A DNA stretch of 32,000 nt, taken from assembly GCA_964543385.1 (NCBI GenBank), contig CAZIYE010000001.1, positions 630,001 to 662,000 of the forward strand, read 5' to 3'. Shown here one piece after another: positions 8,244 through 16,644 of this stretch. Source of the stretch: an uncultured Candidatus Saccharibacteria bacterium. Lineage in GTDB: Bacteria > Patescibacteriota > UBA1384 > XYA2-FULL-43-10 > 1-14-0-10-43-13. Each line of letters begins with the position of its first letter. Position 1 is the stretch's first letter. The position numbers and the translations under genes are program-made. The notes beneath the pieces are model-generated. The model saw only the letters and a program-made list of their open reading frames with translations, was not told where the DNA came from and ran no database searches.

Positions 8244-10585
8244 AAGTAAATATATCTATATCGGGCATGCACTGTGCTTCTTGTGCTTCTCTGATAGAAG
8301 AGGCACTTAAAAAAAATGTTGGAGTTAAGCAAATCATTGTCAACTTTGCGGCCGAAAAGGCCTCCGTTATTTTCGATGATGATCAAACAAATATAGATAA
8401 TATATTAGCTATAATAAAAAAATCTGGATACGACGCCGTGTTAACCAATGAAGGTAATATCAGATCGGACGATAAAAAAAAGCAACAAGAAATTGATAGA
8501 TGGTGGGGAAAGTTTATTTTTGGATTAACTTTTTCTATCCCAATGCTATATTTTATGATTCTTGATTTCTTCCCAGATCTCCCGGGAGGAAATTTATTGC
8601 CTCCATATTTTGGGATTATCTCGCTTATTCTAACCGTTCCTATTCAATTTATTATTGGAGCCGGATTCTATAAGGGCATGTGGTCAAGTCTCAAGATGAG
8701 GACATTTAACATGGACTCATTGATTGCTATTGGTACCTCGACTGCTTTTTTCTATAGTTTGATAAATTTCATACTATATATGATTTACAAAGGCTCAATC
8801 TTGGGCTTAGATGGAACAAAGATTTCAGATCTATATTTTGAGACTGCAGCATTTCTGATTACATTTGTTGTCTTGGGAAAGTGGCTTGAGGCTAAAGCCA
8901 AAGGCAAAACTAGCGATGCAATTAAGAAATTAATGGGTTTGCAAGCTAGAAACGCAAGAGTAATCCGTGATGGCAAGACTCTCAATATTGAAATTGATGA
9001 AGTAATTCACGGAGATATTATTTTGGTCAGACCCGGCGAGAAAGTGCCTGTTGATGGTGTTATTACCAAAGGATTCTCTGCTCTGGATGAATCCATGGTT
9101 ACTGGAGAAAGCTTGCCGGTTGAAAGGCGGGTTGGAGATAAAGTAATAGGTGCTACTCTTAATAAAACTGGTAGTTTTGAATTTGAGGCTACTAAGATCG
9201 GCGCAGAAACTACTTTATCTCAAATTATCCGTTTGATTGAAGAAGCGCAAGGTTCAAAAGCCCCGATTCAAGCCTTTGCTGACAGAATTTCCTCTTGGTT
9301 TGTACCGGTAGTTATTAGTTTGGCAATCATAACTTTAATAGTTTGGTTGCTATTAGGTGCAGGACTTCCTTTTGCTCTGATGGCTTTTACCGCTGTTATT
9401 GTGATTGCTTGTCCTTGTGCACTTGGTCTTGCTACTCCGACTGCAATTATGGTCGGAACAGGTAAAGGCGCAGAGCATGGTATTCTAATAAAGGGCGGTG
9501 AGCCGCTAGAGGCTGCCGAAAAAATTAAGGCAATAGTTTTTGATAAAACAGGCACTCTAACAAATGGTAAGCCTGAGGTTACTAATATCTTATCTTCCTC
9601 TAGTACTGATGAAGACGACATACTCCAAATTTCCGCTTCCTTAGAAAAATCCTCAGAGCATCCTTTGGCTGAAGCTATTTATAGTTATGCCAATGAAGAA
9701 GGAATTAAACTTGATGAAGTTACTGATTTCAAGGCAATCCCCGGTCATGGTGTCGAAGGCAAGATAAATGGTAAAAAATATTTCTTTGGAAACCGAAGAC
9801 TTGCTACAGATGTTGTTGGTCTAGATATTAGTAAGATCAATCGCAAGATGTCAAGAATCGAAGAAGATGGTAAAACTGTAATGATTTTAACCTCTAAAAA
9901 AGAAATCCTAGGTTTGATAGGTGTAGCTGATACAGTCAAAGAGACTTCGAAAGAAGCTGTAGAAAAACTCAAAAAGATGGGTATCGATGTTTGGATGATT
10001 ACCGGTGATAATCAGCGAACTGCTAATGCAATCGCTAAGGAAGTTGGCATTACCAATATTCTTGCTGAAGTGCTTCCTGAGGACAAAGCCAACGAAGTCA
10101 AAAAACTTCAGGAAAGTGGCAAAATTGTGGCAATGGTCGGAGATGGTATTAACGACGCCCCTGCTCTGGCTCAAGCCGATCTTGGTATTGCTATGGGCTC
10201 TGGTACTGATGTAGCCATAGAAGCCGGTGGCATTGTTATTATTAAGAACGATCTAAGAGATGTGGTAAAAGCGATTGAACTTTCCAGAGAAACTATGGGC
10301 AAAGTCCGCCAGAATATGTTTTTTGCTCTTTTTTATAATGTGATTAGTATTCCTATTGCCGCCAGAGTTTTTGTTGACTTGGGTCTTATATTAAAGCCTG
10401 AGCTAGCTGGTTTAGCCATGGCAATGAGCTCAATTTCTGTCGTCTCGAACTCGATATTGCTTAGAGGTTTCAGGCCTCATAAAAAAAACTGGCTCTCCAC
10501 TATTGCTCCAATAATTATGACTTTCGTATTTACTATATTGTTTCTGTGGTTCGCTCGTCTTAGCTCTGAAATGTCAGGAAAATAG
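8240..10585 (+). CDS. copA: Copper-translocating P1B-type ATPase
   Basis: HMA GMHCASC, TGES, CPC ([11 protein letters not shown]), [20 protein letters not shown]. The ATGA overlap with the upstream gene suggests translational coupling. Confidence 0.95.
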
Positions 10586-11254: not shown

Positions 11255-11334
11255 CAAATAGAATAATTTTGGGAAAATAGTCGATTTTCTCGGATAGATT
11301 TAATTTGATAACAACATAAACAATCATAAACACT

Positions 11335-11532
11335 ATGACAGGTACAATCAAAAAATTGACAGACAAGGGCTTTGGCTTTATTACTTCTCCAGAGTTGGGA
11401 AAAGATTTATTTTTTCACAAAAACTCTTGTGTAGATAATTTTGACACTTTCGCCGAAGGAAACGAAGTTTCTTTTGAGTCGGAAGATTCTCCAAAAGGAC
11501 TAAACGCAGTCAATGTTACATTGGTTAAATAA
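11335..11532 (+). CDS. csp: Cold-shock domain protein (CspA family)
   Basis: KGFGFI (RNP1) and LFFH (RNP2-like) motifs. 65 aa. Confidence 0.92.
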   Translation: MTGTIKKLTDKGFGFITSPELGKDLFFHKNSCVDNFDTFAEGNEVSFESEDSPKGLNAVNVTLVK

Positions 11533-11549
11533 CCGATATCCATTGTCCA

Positions 11550-11585
11550 AAAAAAACTCCTAGCATAAAAACTAGGAGTTTTTTG
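11550..11585 (+). terminator. Rho-independent terminator
   Basis: CTCCTAG (11557-11563) pairs with CTAGGAG (11572-11578). The stem is flanked by an A-run and a TTTTTT run. Confidence 0.8.
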
Positions 11586-11676
11586 TATTGGATAAGTAAT
11601 ATTAATTGGCTCTACACAACGGCCGAAGTTCGAGTTATAATTAGTTGAATGCAATGAGATAGACAAAATAGAAACT

Positions 11677-12666
11677 ATGAATAAAAAAAATTTTAGCAAG
11701 GGAGTAGAAGGACTTGTCGATCCAATAACTGTTGGGTCGCTTCATTTTATCCAACCGTTTAATCAGTTGTTGCCAAAGAAAATTCAGAAAAAAGTTGTTC
11801 AATCATCATCAAAAAAGACCTCCTATATGGGATTTGTAGTCGAACCATATAGCTTTTTTCTGTTTTACGAAATTTCTGATTTAGAAAAAGCCACAAATTT
11901 ATTGCCTGATGGTTTCAAAATGATAAAAACAAAAGTATTTGAGGAAGATGAGCCTAAATATTATTGCGTTTTTGGCTGTTTTCGGGCTCATACCAGTGCA
12001 TTTTGGGGTGTGAGAGCAGAATTTTACATTATTGCAGAAGATAAGCAAACTGGATTACTGAGCTGGATAATAGTTGACTATGATACTAATACTATTAGTT
12101 ATGACAGCGGGAATGGATTGCGCTCGCCCAATAGCAGCCGTGCCGTTGTAACAATTAATCATCGCGGAATGCTTTTTGTTGATATTAAAAGAGACGACGA
12201 TAACAGAGAGCTGGTTTGCGACGCAAATATCGAAAAAGGTGAGATGACGAAGCTTGACCAAAGGTTGTGGCTGGAGGGAAATCTCTCGATTGGATATGGT
12301 CGTGTTTTGTCAGAAAATGATGCCGATATTTTTTCTCTTAAGTTTGAGCCACTTGAGGTTGAGAAAGCGTTGAAAATCCCAACTGATAGTTTGGAGATCG
12401 AATCGAATACTTGGTATCCTGGATTATTTAAATCATTACCCTCGCAGATAGTTTGCTTTCCTTATGCACAGCATTTCGTTTCTGATAGTCCGGGGCATTC
12501 CAGTAATCTTAAAAACAGAGACGAACTAATCGCAGCTGAGGAGAATATAGATTTCTCTAAGTTAGAAGTTTTCTCTACCAAGTCATTCAAGGTAATGTTT
12601 ATAGTCGGATCGATAGTATCTTTTCTTGTCACCATGACTTTTTTCCTTCTCTGGTTGCTCAAATAA
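11677..12666 (+). CDS. Hypothetical protein with a C-terminal TM anchor, possibly with an acetoacetate-decarboxylase-like (DUF2071-like) fold
   Basis: 329-aa ORF with a C-terminal helix (VMFIVGSIVSFLVTMTFFLLWLL). The fold suggestion is a weak impression from the LPDGF...FGCFRA...EFYIIA region only. Confidence 0.5.
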   Translation: MNKKNFSKGVEGLVDPITVGSLHFIQPFNQLLPKKIQKKVVQSSSKKTSYMGFVVEPYSFFLFYEISDLEKATNLLPDGFKMIKTKVFEEDEPKYYCVFGCFRAHTSAFWGVRAEFYIIAEDKQTGLLSWIIVDYDTNTISYDSGNGLRSPNSSRAVVTINHRGMLFVDIKRDDDNRELVCDANIEKGEMTKLDQRLWLEGNLSIGYGRVLSENDADIFSLKFEPLEVEKALKIPTDSLEIESNTWYPGLFKSLPSQIVCFPYAQHFVSDSPGHSSNLKNRDELIAAEENIDFSKLEVFSTKSFKVMFIVGSIVSFLVTMTFFLLWLLK

Positions 12667-12895
12667 TTTGGCCAGTGTTTGGACCAAAAAAGGCCATCTG
12701 GGGATCAGTATTTTTATGTCTCTACACCGTGTTAGAAGTTGGAACTAGTTCTCAGCTGGCAATCGAATGAATATCAACTAAAAGGCTTAAAAGTGAGAAT
12801 AATAGTATTAAATATCAGCAAAATCTCAGTCTGTTTTTTTTGCATATTCGTGTTAGCATGTTGTTATGATATTAGGAAATTAAAAGGAGTCGAAA

Positions 12896-13819
12896 ATGGA
12901 ATTGACAAGTTCAACTATTGAACCAAAAAAGAACTCAGGTCTCATCAAAATGATCATTCTTATCGCAGCCGGAGTTTTGGTCTTGGGGAGTGTTTCATCC
13001 GTCGGTGCAGCGTATTATCAGTCTAATAAATTGATAAAAGAAGGGGATTCATTTAAAAATAATGGTGAATATTCTGCGGCCGCATCCAAATATGATCAAG
13101 CCATCAAAAAATGGAAAATGAATGAGTCTAAGGTCTCCACAAAAGTTGATGAGACAAAAACATTAATAAGCGAACAGGAAAAATATGACTTGGGTGAGAT
13201 TGCATACCAAAGACAAGATTGGCAAAATTGTAGCGATGAACTAAAGAAAGTATCCCCAGTTCACAAGAATTATAGTTCAGCTCTTTCTCACTCGCAAATC
13301 TGTCAGCAAAAGATGCAAGAAGAAGTCGATTTAGCTGCTAAAACCAAAGCAGATTTGGATGCTAAAACTGCCACCGACGCACAAATTGCTGCTGATGCTA
13401 AAGCCAAAGCTGATACTGCAGCCGCTAAAAAAGTCGCTGAAGCGAAAGCCAAGGCTGCTGAAGACGCCATAATTCCAACTCCGATCGATATTGTCATCAC
13501 GGCGCTCGACAGTGACAATAATAATAAGGTTATGGGCATTTACGAAGCACCAGCTGGTACCCCTGGTGCTGTCTATAATGGATATTACGAATTTGGTATC
13601 CCATTAAATAAATTTAAACTTACATACCCTTCTGTTTCTGGAGCGGTATCAGCCAGAGGTATTTTAGAAGAAGGTGCATCCACAATCACTGATTTGGGTG
13701 ATCTAAATTTGCAATTTAACGATGCTAAAATCGGTCTTAATGTTATCAGAGTTGAGGTTTTAAATTCAAAAGGCCAAATTATTGCTACTGGTAAAACAAG
13801 AATTGTTCGATATCCATAA
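12896..13819 (+). CDS. Hypothetical membrane-anchored protein with an Ala/Lys-rich low-complexity segment
   Basis: N-terminal TM helix (MIILIAAGVLVLGSVSSVGAAYY). Central AKTKADLDAKTATDAQIAADAKAKADTAAAKKVAEAKAKAAEDA stretch. C-terminal beta-rich domain. AAGGAG RBS upstream. Confidence 0.65.
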   Translation: MELTSSTIEPKKNSGLIKMIILIAAGVLVLGSVSSVGAAYYQSNKLIKEGDSFKNNGEYSAAASKYDQAIKKWKMNESKVSTKVDETKTLISEQEKYDLGEIAYQRQDWQNCSDELKKVSPVHKNYSSALSHSQICQQKMQEEVDLAAKTKADLDAKTATDAQIAADAKAKADTAAAKKVAEAKAKAAEDAIIPTPIDIVITALDSDNNNKVMGIYEAPAGTPGAVYNGYYEFGIPLNKFKLTYPSVSGAVSARGILEEGASTITDLGDLNLQFNDAKIGLNVIRVEVLNSKGQIIATGKTRIVRYP

Positions 13820-13942
13820 GCGACTCATTGACGAATCACTTATCGGTATAATTGCTTTTTGTAATCTTATACCTGAAATTTTGATATAGCATTTTAAAAT
13901 ATTTCGCATACAGTTAGTTGCAGAAAACCCTAATTAATATAT

Positions 13943-14035
13943 GTTCAAGTCCGTTGATCCATACAAAAAATAAAATAACTAGTCCTAGACTAGTTATTTC
14001 TATGGATCTGTGTAGTTGCAGAAGTTCGAGCTATT
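13943..14035 (+). repeat. Hairpin module copy 1: tRNA 3'-end-like fragment, 12-bp-stem hairpin and conserved right flank
   Basis: GTTCAAGTCC plus 13 nt (13943-13963). Hairpin AAATAACTAGTC-cta-GACTAGTTATTT (13973-13999). The right flank ends GAAGTTCGAGCTATT (to 14035). It is clearly homologous (not scored), with small indels, to copy 2 over about 90 nt. Confidence 0.8.
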
Positions 14036-14096
14036 TCTTGAGTATCGCAACTTTACCATATCTCAAATTGTGAGTTCCTGACAGGACCACTTCCAA

Positions 14097-14975
14097 TCAC
14101 ACATGAGGTGTTTCTTTTATCTCTGAATAAGACAATGTCTCTGGCCAAATCATATTTCCGTCCAAATCATAGACAGGTAGGCATTTTTCTGGACTTACTG
14201 TCGCTAAATGTTTCATGGTGTCAATTACTTCATTAACAGTTAAATCACTGCGAACATCTACGACAATACCCTTAAATTTCCCTTGACTAATCCTGAACGG
14301 AGTCGAAAAACCCGTTCCTTGATCTGTTTGATGATTGGAGTTGCTTTGCGGATCGAATCCGTTTTTGAGCTTCTGAAAATAATATGATGATTTCCCTCTG
14401 TCTGACTCTGAAGAAAAAGTGTTCATTACTTTAAAATCTGGCCTGCCAACTTCTTTAATACCGCTTAATGTTCCTGGCGGCAACTCCCTGTGTTTGCTTA
14501 TATCCAAAATTAGAGTGGCAGTATAATTTGCCATGTGTGTCTGTTTTATTTGCAAAGGCCCTTTTATGCCAGATATTCTTCCAACAATATTAAACCAAAC
14601 TCGGTTTCCGGGGATATCCCATTCTCTGGCACTTTTAGCCCAACCTGTAGCAAGGGCTTCTCTTCTTAATTCAAACGATGGATTGTTCTTCATTCTTTCT
14701 GGGGTACCCTTATTGCCCAATAGACCCATGTTTAAAATTTCCTGAAGCCTATCTCTTTCGACACCGTTACGAATTGAAGTAAAAGCAGTCCCGTACTCAT
14801 CTATATCGCATAGTTTTGACATAATCAAATCTTTGACTTCAGGACTCAGATTCAATTCTGGATTGACGGCATTATCCTCTTGGTTAGACTCGGTAGATAG
14901 TTTTGAAGCCTCCATGCGTTGCATTTCAGCCAAGGCTTCTGGCGGCAAATAACTTAATTCTTCATCCATTTGCAT
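14097..14975 (-). CDS. Hypothetical protein (292 aa) with no recognisable domain
   Basis: Long ORF bracketed by hairpin-module copies 1 and 2. No motif that I can name. Confidence 0.6.
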   Translation of the reverse strand: MQMDEELSYLPPEALAEMQRMEASKLSTESNQEDNAVNPELNLSPEVKDLIMSKLCDIDEYGTAFTSIRNGVERDRLQEILNMGLLGNKGTPERMKNNPSFELRREALATGWAKSAREWDIPGNRVWFNIVGRISGIKGPLQIKQTHMANYTATLILDISKHRELPPGTLSGIKEVGRPDFKVMNTFSSESDRGKSSYYFQKLKNGFDPQSNSNHQTDQGTGFSTPFRISQGKFKGIVVDVRSDLTVNEVIDTMKHLATVSPEKCLPVYDLDGNMIWPETLSYSEIKETPHV

Positions 14976-15049
14976 ACCTAATTTATTTACAAATTTGTAT
15001 TATCTTATTCAAAGAATTCTGGCCAAATATTACCACAATTACACAGTCA

Positions 15050-15139
15050 GTTCGAGTCCAAAGTGGAGGAAACAAAAAATAACTAGTCCTAGACTAGTTA
15101 TTTTCATGGCTCTGCACAGTGAACGAAGTTCGAGCTATT
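15050..15139 (+). repeat. Hairpin module copy 2
   Basis: GTTCGAGTCC plus 13 nt (15050-15070). Hairpin AAAATAACTAGTC-cta-GACTAGTTATTTT (15076-15104). Right flank ...GAAGTTCGAGCTATT (to 15139) overlaps the last codons of the Nudix gene. Confidence 0.8.
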
Positions 15140-15545
15140 GTAGCTTGATTTTTCTATCCAATACCATTTCAAAGAAAGTTTTGGTGGCTGTTTTCAATGG
15201 GAGATCCATTATTTCTTTTAGTGAGAACCAACCGAATGATGATGCTTCGTTCTTATCTAAAACAACTTTTTCATCTTTAATTAACTCTGCTTGCCAAAAT
15301 GAGAGACTTTTTACTTTATAGTCTGCAGGAAGGGTGATTAGTTTGTTCAAAGATTTTACTCTTAGTCGTGTCTCTTCAAAGACTTCTCTTTCAACTGATT
15401 CTGTTTCATCTTTGTCTAGTGAATTTATCCTTCCGTGGGGAGGAGACCACAATCCAGTCGATGGCTTTCGATTATCCTCTAAAAGCAATATTTTGTTGTC
15501 AGGGTTCTTGATGATTACTACAACTCCATGTTCTGTTGAATCCAT
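15135..15545 (-). CDS. Nudix hydrolase
   Basis: The sequence from GRINSLDKDETESVE through REVFEETRL is a near-canonical Nudix box (REUXEE present, spacing off by one). 136 aa. Confidence 0.8.
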   Translation of the reverse strand: MDSTEHGVVVIIKNPDNKILLLEDNRKPSTGLWSPPHGRINSLDKDETESVEREVFEETRLRVKSLNKLITLPADYKVKSLSFWQAELIKDEKVVLDKNEASSFGWFSLKEIMDLPLKTATKTFFEMVLDRKIKLQ

Positions 15546-15592
15546 TATCTCCTTTACATTAATAAATTAATCTTATCAATTTAGGGCGACCA

Positions 15593-15650
15593 GTTCGAGT
15601 CCAGTCTGATTTATACAAAAAATAACTAGTCTAGGACTAATTATTTTTAT
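15593..15650 (-). repeat. Hairpin module copy 3, in inverted orientation, serving as terminator of tRNA-Asn
   Basis: Hairpin at about 15617-15648 (AAAAATAACTAGTC-tag-GACTAATTATTTTT) with one C/A mismatch. Its loop is the reverse complement of the loop in copies 1 and 2. A plus-strand fragment, GTTCGAGTCC plus 13 nt, lies at 15593-15613. Confidence 0.75.
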
Positions 15651-15725
15651 TGGCTCCCTGAGCTGGACTCGAACCAGCAACATCTTCGTTAACAGCGAAG
15701 CGCTCTGCCATTGAGCTATCAGGGA
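15651..15725 (-). tRNA. tRNA-Asn: tRNA-Asn (anticodon GTT) with encoded CCA
   Basis: Hand-folded cloverleaf: acceptor TCCCTGA/TCAGGGA, D stem GCTC/GAGC, anticodon stem CTTCG/CGAAG with loop CTGTTAA, T stem GCTGG/CCAGC with loop TTCGAGT, discriminator G, then CCA. 75 nt. Confidence 0.93.
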
Positions 15726-15733
15726 ATAAATTG

Positions 15734-15982
15734 TTATTTTTCAAACAATGTTTTGATAAAATTTCTGCCAGCGTGGGATTTTAAATATTTTTCTCTTCCC
15801 AACGCTTCTTTTCTATTATCAAATCTTTCAGTATAAAAAATTTTCCATGGCTTGTATTTTCTGCTGAAATGATTCGATCCAGAATTGTGTTCAAGTAATC
15901 TTTTTTCAAGGTTATCAGTTACTCCAGTATAAGTCTTTGGCGATTTTTCACTGATTAGAATATAGATATAACTATCTGCCAT
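15734..15982 (-). CDS. GIY-YIG nuclease superfamily protein (UPF0213/YhbQ-like small URI-domain protein)
   Basis: YIYIL...YTGVTDNLEKRLLEHN...PWKIFY...REKYLK matches the GIY-YIG core (GIY-x10-YIG-like, R, E, N). Its stop lies 8 nt upstream of the tRNA-Asn 5' end. Confidence 0.88.
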   Translation of the reverse strand: MADSYIYILISEKSPKTYTGVTDNLEKRLLEHNSGSNHFSRKYKPWKIFYTERFDNRKEALGREKYLKSHAGRNFIKTLFEK

Positions 15983-15985
15983 TGC

Positions 15986-16067
15986 CCGTCCTTGCTGATT
16001 AATCAGCCAAGGCCGAGGTCTCGGCTCGCTTCGCGAGTCGGAAGCTATCAGGGAAAATGTATTTTTC
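15986..16067 (-). mobile_element. GC-rich three-hairpin leader of the GIY-YIG gene plus a duplicated tRNA-Asn 5' end, a putative insertion junction
   Basis: 16043-16054 equals tRNA nt 1-12 (TCCCTGATAGCT), and 16055-16067 resembles the sequence upstream of the real tRNA. Minus-strand hairpins are CTCGC-gaa-GCGAG, CCGAG-ac-CTCGG, and CCTTGGCTGAT-ta-ATCAGCAAGG. The 3' arm of the last hairpin contains the AAGGA RBS. Confidence 0.6.
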
Positions 16068-16304
16068 TAATAGCAATTCTAGCAAAAAAAATGACTTCTG
16101 TAAATAAACCTATCTACTAGGATGAATAAGCTAGGAGTATGGCAGATATAAACATGTCATACCAGTTGACTCTTTTGCGGTCAGAGAGATGGTTTGCCTC
16201 AAAAGCATTCATCTTACTCCTTTCTTCGGTAATGACTTTGGAGACCTATTTTACCTCTTGGTCAATAGATGTCAAGAAAAATATATAGATATTACATCTC
16301 TCTA

Positions 16305-16354
16305 TTGACATACAATCCATCTAGGATTATAGTTCAAATGTTATTGAACTATAA
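16305..16354 (+). promoter_or_regulatory. Sigma-70 promoter overlapped by an 11-6-11 inverted repeat, a candidate ArsR operator
   Basis: TTGACA (16305-16310), 17-nt spacer, TATAGT (16328-16333). TTATAGTTCAA (16327-16337) pairs with TTGAACTATAA (16344-16354), covering the -10 element and the likely transcription start. Confidence 0.65.
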
Positions 16355-16371
16355 ATATTATAGTAGATATT

Positions 16372-16644
16372 ATGAATAATAAAATAGAAGAATTATCTTT
16401 TTTGATAAACGAAAACAAGCTAAGAGTTATCTCGGCAATCTACAAATGTACTAAGGATGTCTGCGCTTGCAATTTAGTTGATAATCTTGGCATGCCTAAG
16501 AACCTTCTTTCGTATCACATAAAAACTTTGAGAGAAGCAGGATTTATAGAAGAGGTTAAATGTGGTCGTTTTAAAAATTATTGCATATCGAAAAATAAAA
16601 TTAATAGAATCAAACAAATCTTAGAATTAGTTGAAATGTTATAA
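16372..16644 (+). CDS. arsR: ArsR/SmtB-family metalloregulatory transcriptional repressor
   Basis: Winged HTH (LLSYHIKTLREAGFIEE) with a CAC pair (DVCACNLVD) at the position of the ArsR ELCVCDL metal site. 90 aa. Confidence 0.85.
   Translation: MNNKIEELSFLINENKLRVISAIYKCTKDVCACNLVDNLGMPKNLLSYHIKTLREAGFIEEVKCGRFKNYCISKNKINRIKQILELVEML

Follow-up and report, generated by a model that had tools for sequence, protein, structure and literature searches.

Small gene units bordered by tRNA-tail and terminator modules at a probable insertion hot spot behind tRNA-Asn in a Saccharibacteria genome

The window analyzed here, a stretch of 32,000 nucleotides (nt) from an uncultured Candidatus Saccharibacteria bacterium (contig 1, positions 630001–662000, of a 0.9 Mb genome with 38% G+C in 4 contigs), holds a row of small gene units next to a tRNA gene. 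This gene, tRNA-Asn(GTT), is the only tRNA-Asn among the 43 tRNA genes of the genome and the only tRNA of the window, and it stands intact at one border of the array. The array spans 11606–15725 and comprises four units, which carry a Nudix gene, an orphan gene for 292 amino acids (aa), a 307-aa open reading frame (ORF) and a 329-aa ORF. In what follows, G-numbers denote compared genomes, G000 being the genome of the window, and L-numbers denote compared loci and metagenome contigs.

An earlier note on this DNA had reported a hairpin in three copies, and the repetition is indeed beyond chance. The 23-nt hairpin, ATAACTAGTC, 3 nt, GACTAGTTAT, lies at 13975–13997, 15079–15101 and 15622–15644 (copies 1, 2 and 3); the first two copies are exact to the pattern, and the third has 1 mismatch. 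The stems are 12–14 bp long, and the 3-nt loops read CTA, CTA and TAG on the plus strand. The pattern was matched 0 times in 100 shuffles, so that three copies stand against 0 expected by chance. Similarly, the plus-strand fragments that had been likened to tRNA 3′ ends have the geometry claimed for them. They start at 13943 (GTTCAAGTCC..), 15050 and 15593 (both GTTCGAGTCC..), all begin with GTTCRAGTCC, and each is followed by 11 nt, by 3 nt in the CCA position and then by an A-run, exactly as in a true tRNA. We agree with the note that these fragments lack 5′ tRNA halves because Rfam, even at E ≤ 5, gives no tRNA-like match other than tRNA-Asn in 11300–16400. The homology of copies 1 and 2 does extend beyond the hairpin (83% identity over 70 nt and 68% over ~100 nt), and a single minus-strand gene lies between each pair of modules, namely, the 292-aa orphan (14097–14975) and the Nudix gene (15135–15545).

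What kind of unit does the hairpin belong to? We aligned 22 modules from this and related genomes, reading them in the direction of tRNA-Asn, i.e., on the minus strand. Each hairpin copy is the core of a ~100-nt module that consists of a 5′ arm, then an A-run, the hairpin and a T-run, and then a 3′ arm. The 5′ arm is either a true tRNA tail, from the T-loop to CCA, or a degenerate version of it, and it finishes in ...GCCA. The degenerate arms mostly belong to one conserved family, here called type B (TAG, CTCGAAC, TTC, ~6 variable nt, ACTGTG, YAGAGCCA), and type B arms are 4–5 nt longer. The 3′ arm contains a conserved core, TGGACTCGAAC, which is the reverse complement of the T-loop and 3′ T-stem of a tRNA. 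This mirror box is the best-conserved stretch of the 3′ arm, and in nearly every module (~20 modules) it starts 33–34 nt from the center of the loop, with the true T-loop equally distant on the opposite side.

In each of the three modules of the window, the mirror arm lies to the left of the hairpin and the tail-type arm to its right, and consequently they are direct repeats in the tRNA-Asn orientation (repeat families D1 and D3). Copy 3 had been taken for an inverted copy as a whole; its flanks show instead that it is a direct repeat, in which the flip is limited to the 3-nt loop. The left-hand fragments of copies 1 and 2 had also been paired with the tRNA tail at copy 3, and this pairing has to be replaced: the counterparts of the tRNA-Asn tail are the right-hand arms of these copies, with TGGATC and TGGCTC (GATCCA and GAGCCA in reverse complement) at their ends. 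The features of the array, beginning at the tRNA, are the following:

15651–15725, minus strand: tRNA-Asn(GTT), identified with ARAGORN and Rfam (RF00005, 70.2 bits); anchor of the array, whose tail from T-loop to CCA serves as the 5′ arm of the first module
15593–15650, minus strand: module W3, with A-run, hairpin and T-run at 15618–15648 and the mirror T-loop/T-stem box at 15593–15604, complementary to the tRNA T-arm at 12/12 positions
15135–15545, minus strand: cargo of unit 1, a 136-aa Nudix hydrolase (Pfam PF00293, E = 6e-13) with an ortholog in the equivalent position in L037
15047–15139, minus strand: module W2, with a type B arm at 15106–15139 ending in GAGCCA, the hairpin at 15075–15105 and the mirror box at 15050–15060
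14097–14975, minus strand: cargo of unit 2, a 292-aa protein without a Pfam or NCBIfam match
13943–14035, minus strand: module W1, with a type B arm at 14001–14035 ending in GATCCA, the hairpin at 13972–14000 and the mirror box at 13943–13952, in the variant GTTCAAG
12896–13819, plus strand (opposite to the tRNA): cargo of unit 3, a 307-aa ORF without a family match
12715–12749, minus strand: relic type B arm (nhmmer, E = 7e-6) with a decayed hairpin
11677–12666, plus strand: cargo of unit 4, a 329-aa ORF without a family match
11606–11638, minus strand: outermost relic type B arm (nhmmer, E = 8e-7), adjoining an unrelated terminator hairpin at 11548–11582

A search of the whole genome with an nhmmer profile of the type B arm returned exactly 4 copies, those listed above, all of them on the minus strand at the tRNA-Asn locus and in direct orientation. 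The two outer arms are without the canonical hairpin, which indicates that module decay increases with distance from the tRNA. As for the cargo, among the 43 other genomes compared within the order, just 2 gave homologs of the 292-aa protein, and where homologs of this protein and of the Nudix protein occur in other places, no modules flank them. With regard to a defense function, the cargo gave a weak PADLOC candidate match for the Nudix protein only.

By its form, the hairpin is a predicted intrinsic two-way terminator of tRNA-Asn. In most tRNA operons of this genome, the CCA is followed by an A-run, a palindrome and a T-run whose sequence is particular to the operon, and a simple terminator scan of the minus strand picks up W1 and W2. 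Across the 22 modules, compensatory changes occur at 8 of the 14 stem pairs, and G·U pairs outnumber A·C mismatches on the strand read in the tRNA direction, an excess that fits selection on the transcript of that strand. We also considered whether the type B arm could be what is left of a recombinase gene, namely, the end of its coding sequence, read on the opposite strand (WLCTVxEVRAI...). The arm has neither codon-position periodicity nor a synonymous excess in that frame, and no intact gene ending with a type B arm was found in 44 genomes; a coding origin is unsupported rather than excluded.

The fourth and last copy of the hairpin in the genome lies at 49395–49417 of contig 1, directly after tRNA-Ala(GGC), so that every copy (n = 4) sits behind a true or relic tRNA tail. 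Furthermore, all module-like matches in the genome are downstream of tRNA 3′ ends, namely, those of tRNA-Asn, tRNA-Ala(GGC), tRNA-Trp (with a related hairpin) and, as a relic, tRNA-Ala(TGC). This relic module (contig 1, 283083–283182) lies ~450 nt downstream of its tRNA and has an arm, GACTCGCAATAGTGCGTTCCACCA, with clear orthologs behind tRNA-Ala(TGC) in G008 and G015. Repetitive extragenic palindromes (REPs), bacterial interspersed mosaic elements or miniature inverted-repeat transposable elements (MITEs) would be dispersed between genes, whereas the copies found here are confined to tRNA 3′ flanks. The earlier note had named a generic, genome-wide REP-like terminator as the finding that would overturn its proposal, and this is not what the genome contains.

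How widespread are such modules? The hairpin occurs in exact or near-exact form in 6 of 23 genomes of the family, and a covariance model of the module had matches in 11 of the 17 family genomes sampled and in 32 of 151 class genomes, frequently in clusters 0.5–3 kb apart, with 1 to ~13 copies per genome. Arrays at tRNA-Asn were seen in G010 (four or five modules), in G022 and in the metagenome contigs L034 and L037, and arrays at tRNA-Trp in G002, G023 and the congener G001; in G014, a module adjoins tRNA-Glu, with a second hairpin downstream. The last 6–7 nt of the arm track the local tRNA: GAGCCA at Asn, CTGCCA at Trp and TCCACCA at Ala. Similarly, the mirror box of G002 is a copy of the Trp T-loop, and matches between arm and tRNA reach 11–18 nt in G010 and G023. 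The cargo, on the other hand, is unrelated between arrays (those of G010, G022, G008, G002, L034 and L037), with HD, FecR, methyltransferase, RidA, Imm5-like, Ppx and histidine phosphatase domains among its products; the 230-aa ORFs of G022 and G008, examined as possible common cargo, proved unrelated. Units of mixed orientation are present in G010 and G022 as well. In public collections, the exact hairpin was found in 6 stretches from representative genomes of all prokaryotes, 1 being that of the Patescibacteria genome G010 and 5 coming from unrelated taxa, and 7 times among metagenome contigs. A phage or free-element origin was not supported: no viral contig had the hairpin or the arm, 44 viral contigs with a tRNA-Asn tail were without the module, and the single viral match to the mirror-arm pattern resembles, as judged by eye, a piece of a regular tRNA gene lying on the other strand.

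The borders of the units can be seen in comparisons between relatives. L037 is collinear with 15047–15725 of the window at 79% identity, a segment that takes in tRNA-Asn, W3, the orthologous 136-aa Nudix gene and the whole of W2. The homology ends at 15047, the distal end of the module, 3 nt past the mirror box of W2; beyond this point, the window continues with the 292-aa gene and L037 with two unrelated genes. In the congener pairs G022 and G019, and G014 and G021, the region upstream of tRNA-Asn is syntenic and the region downstream is not. At tRNA-Trp, the congener G001 carries a module-bounded insertion (L082, 760–1670) with a partial duplicate of the tRNA tail, a terminator, a Trp-type arm and a mirror box, which is missing at the equivalent site in G000. 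In all four comparisons, variable content thus lies beside a conserved flank on the tRNA side, as is expected of tRNA islands.

Both tRNA-Asn and the modules carry further small insertions. Immediately upstream of tRNA-Asn, at a distance of 8 nt, lies an 82-aa GIY-YIG gene (15734–16067, minus strand, Pfam PF01541) within a split duplicate of tRNA nt 1–22 (region 15714–16067). The first 12 nt of the tRNA recur at 16043–16055 (the 13-nt repeat D10) and are followed by a ~60-nt GC-rich, hairpin-rich insert and then by a D-loop piece that holds the ATG of the ORF. The arrangement is kept in other genera, including one of another family (G023, locus L006), and the position of the gene inside a split tRNA duplicate implies that both ends of tRNA-Asn are insertion targets. 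The tRNA-Asn gene itself is interrupted by an insert of ~210 nt in G022 (L014, 4690–4987) and of ~540 nt in G027 (L055, 6675–7294), and in both it is uncalled by ARAGORN; these inserts look like introns or inserted elements. Small GC-rich palindromes, e.g., CCGCCAGCTGGCGG, are present inside modules or tRNA-like relics in L034 (~475–500), L015 (~2650–2680), L013 (~9700–9730) and L048 (~2270–2300) and look like a separate family of mini-insertions.

Could a recombinase of these bacteria act at such sites? Large serine recombinases are encoded in 31 of the 44 genomes of the order. In G008, G021 and G031 (L063, L056 and L054), the ORF of such an enzyme is convergent with tRNA-Asn and has its stop codon 30–42 nt inside the tRNA. 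The G008 and G021 proteins end in the nine residues WLPELDSNQ, which the tRNA-Asn 3′ end encodes when read in antisense, and the tail of the G031 protein is related to them. Furthermore, the G029 array contains a decayed recombinase C-terminus together with a decayed tRNA-Asn tail. In G000, a large serine recombinase ORF on contig 2 (~900–2540) stops 6 nt after tRNA-Arg(TCG), and a 20-nt direct repeat of the 3′ end of this tRNA lies 108 nt downstream, within the C-terminal coding region of the recombinase (L024, 252–456; contig 2, ~821–1025). For the G000 copy of this recombinase family, the best NCBIfam matches, XisF and Ccr, are both well under the model cut-offs. Because genes of this type end inside tRNA-Asn in relatives and encode the only dedicated integrases of these genomes, the first candidate enzyme would be a large serine recombinase that either acts in trans or has meanwhile been lost.

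We consider it reasonably probable that the locus is a hot spot for insertion at a tRNA 3′ end, situated at the tail and terminator of tRNA-Asn, where small units were inserted one after another and later exchanged. The three modules and the two decayed outer ones are best read as junction relics of successive insertions directly behind tRNA-Asn. This reading builds on what was directly observed: the anatomy of the module, its confinement to the 3′ flanks of tRNAs, its reappearance beside unrelated cargo in other genera and the divergence at a module border. Among the explanations offered in the earlier note, serial integration scars at a tRNA hot spot have the best support, from the direct repeats in the tRNA orientation, the loss of synteny downstream in congeners, the L037 breakpoint and the recombinases that abut tRNA-Asn in relatives. 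Its idea of modules that travel with gene cassettes is compatible with one conserved arm type accompanying unrelated genes in several genera. Its third proposal, decayed convergent tRNA genes, we reject on grounds given below.

How would such a row of units arise? An incoming unit would carry a ~100-nt site that mimics a tRNA tail with its terminator, i.e., an arm ending in ...GAGCCA, the hairpin and the mirror T-loop box, and it would be inserted by recombination with the resident tail and terminator region of the tRNA. The insertion would keep the tRNA working with a terminator, and the older junction would be pushed outward and decay there. The outcome would be accessory units of one gene in a row, all having a terminator and direct-repeat borders in the tRNA orientation. 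The recombination event itself is a step that we infer. RecA-dependent exchange between conserved modules after DNA uptake probably also shuffles the units. The L037 breakpoint favors the CTCGAAC box over the hairpin as the putative crossover site, and the mirror box, being more conserved than the rest of the 3′ arm, could be a recombinase binding site. Alternatively, the mirror box could come from recombination of two tail-plus-palindrome units aligned oppositely through the palindrome, which would flip the loops too.

Several observations weigh against serial insertion behind tRNA-Asn. The tRNA identity of the relic arms in the window is short, W1 and W2 matching tRNA-Asn over the last 6–8 nt only, and the remainder of these arms is conserved sequence of another kind. 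Simple serial integration does not predict a mirror T-loop box at a constant spacing, and units 3 and 4 lie on the strand opposite to the tRNA. No integrase or recombinase genes were found in or adjoining the array (11300–16400); the recombinases of the genome are one Xer-type tyrosine recombinase, 130 kb from the array, and two large serine recombinases on other contigs (2 and 3). In relatives, the tRNA-Asn junctions that bear a recombinase are without the hairpin module, and the link between enzyme and module is therefore circumstantial. Finally, the unit common to the window and L037 is the tRNA-proximal one, whereas a strict model in which the newest unit is next to the tRNA predicts a distal one; insertion or replacement must therefore occur at internal modules too.

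This last point bears directly on an account without any dedicated machinery, in which ordinary tRNA-type terminators are reused, conserved stretches of ~30–70 nt are remodeled by homologous recombination after the uptake of related DNA, and the arms are passive leftovers. A shared proximal unit with different distal units fits replacement better than strictly proximal addition, and the substrates for it exist: a stretch of ~31 nt in the hairpin region does not differ at all between genera with neighboring genes of ~67–79% identity, which is enough for RecA exchange, and tRNA-Asn, ~90% identical, provides a second anchor. However, such an account would leave unexplained the origin of the module, the conserved arm family with its tRNA-tuned end beside unrelated genes in several genera and the mirror box at exactly 34 nt from the loop center. 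Moreover, the patchy distribution of the hairpin in the family points to spread, not vertical conservation, and on balance we regard the account as unlikely. An integron-like system would share with the array its units of one to two genes, its imperfect-palindrome site at one end, its fixed anchor and its diverse cargo. Here, the ~100-nt module would fold on itself in single-stranded form and serve a host enzyme (the lone tyrosine recombinase, of Xer type, or another) as an attC-like substrate, with the tRNA-Asn tail as the attI-like primary site. The tRNA-adjacent modules do fold strongly (−16.8, −16.4, −17.7 and −14.6 kcal/mol, where cross-pairs average ~−8.5), and the one-strand G·U excess of the hairpin would fit strand-specific DNA folding as well. 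An attC-like fold of the whole module did not hold up, however: strong folding is limited to the tRNA-adjacent modules, and the two arms of an internal module pair with each other no better than with arms taken from other modules, as judged by duplex energies (permutation p = 0.34). The box is GTTCGAG/CTCGAAC and not RYYYAAC...GTTRRRY, unit orientation is mixed, so that the cassettes are not co-oriented behind one promoter, and the sole tyrosine recombinase, far from the array, scores 127.7 bits on the integron-integrase model TIGR02249 (cut-off 265) and matches Xer models best. We hold an integron-like origin to be distinctly unlikely.

Might the module instead be a small non-autonomous mobile repeat of the MITE or REP kind, which inserts itself near tRNA tails and terminators, with the genes in between as bystanders? 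Its form, a ~100-nt imperfect palindrome with conserved ends in 1 to ~13 copies per genome, would suit such a repeat, as would the small GC-rich hairpins inserted in some modules and a DDE transposase gene beside the G002 array. But every copy in the genome lies at a tRNA 3′ flank in a single orientation relative to the tRNA, the ends of the arms co-vary with the local tRNA, and relatives differ in the content of the units, not in the presence of modules alone. Neither did we find a Y1/RAYT transposase (PF01797) in this genome, which is 98.7% complete, and we rate a self-inserting repeat as very improbable. The remaining alternative takes the plus-strand fragments for remnants of former tRNA genes, convergent with tRNA-Asn and served by its terminator. 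The exact tRNA geometry of the fragments, with a T-loop box 34 nt from the loop center on both sides, is what this would predict, but a 5′ half is present in 0 of ~20 modules, the homology always breaking off at the T-loop while the box stays fixed at 34 nt. No intact convergent partner exists in any relative examined, and the fragment is also present in internal modules, which have no tRNA nearby. We give this origin almost no credence.

Among known systems, the array most resembles islands anchored at tRNA genes, to which the "additive" flexible islands of Alteromonas and the tRNA-integrated islands of the Islander collection reportedly belong. Such islands likewise have an intact tRNA at one end, variable cargo beside a conserved flank and decayed elements inside, and some of the elements use large serine recombinases; their partial tRNA copies, which mark older, outward junctions, are a possible parallel to the relic arms. 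Unlike them, the array has units of one or two genes, without integrase or replication genes, and its junction is a ~100-nt composite of a degenerate tail, a terminator and a mirror box where those islands have a simple partial tRNA of 40 nt; in the relics, genuine identity to a tRNA covers 6–18 nt only. The remnants of tycheposons in Prochlorococcus are tRNA-anchored islands of this kind, built by successive integrations and containing partial tRNA copies and decayed elements (bioRxiv 10.1101/2020.12.28.424599). Serial integration at tRNA genes that leaves partial tRNA copies and decayed elements is thus already known. In the literature searched, we found no published description of the composite module or of such arrays in Patescibacteria.

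Integrons, and attC clusters without an integrase (CALINs), share with the array the small, mostly single-gene units, the palindromic site at the end of the unit, the fixed anchor and the diverse cargo, mostly of unknown function. The array differs from them in having no integron integrase, other site motifs, unpaired internal arms, mixed orientation and a site that doubles as a tRNA-type terminator. Large serine recombinase elements include phiC31, Bxb1, A118 and those of the SCCmec ccr type, and their known attachment sites are 40–50 bp long. In relatives, a gene of this type heads the site, running toward tRNA-Asn and stopping within it, but the array contains no such gene, the junctions that bear a recombinase lack the hairpin module, and the attachment sites are shorter than the module. 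In the pdif modules of Acinetobacter plasmids and in other elements that exploit Xer, small gene modules lie between short dyad-symmetric sites, their orientation can alternate, and a host recombinase acts in trans. The array has comparable small gene modules bracketed by short dyad-symmetric sites, but its hairpin has a 3-nt center, unlike the 6–8-bp spacer between 11-bp arms of pdif, and no link to the Xer-type recombinase or a chromosomal dif site emerged for it.

Patescibacteria have genomes of ~1 Mb with few recognizable mobile elements, and their routes of gene gain are unclear. It is possible, though we put it forward tentatively and with more doubt than conviction, that they possess a cassette-capture system without an integrase in cis, in which the ~100-nt sites target units to the terminators of tRNA operons (Asn, Trp, Ala and Glu) and an enzyme acting in trans inserts, swaps and possibly flips them. 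If true, this system would be a functional analogue of integrons, anchored on tRNA genes, and a main route of gene gain in these minimal genomes. The array also suggests a testable target for the large serine recombinases that are abundant in the group. A recurrent, precisely bordered stack of one-gene units behind tRNAs would show where accessory genes are kept and exchanged, and the combination of arm, hairpin and mirror box would give a signature with which such genes could be found in metagenomes.

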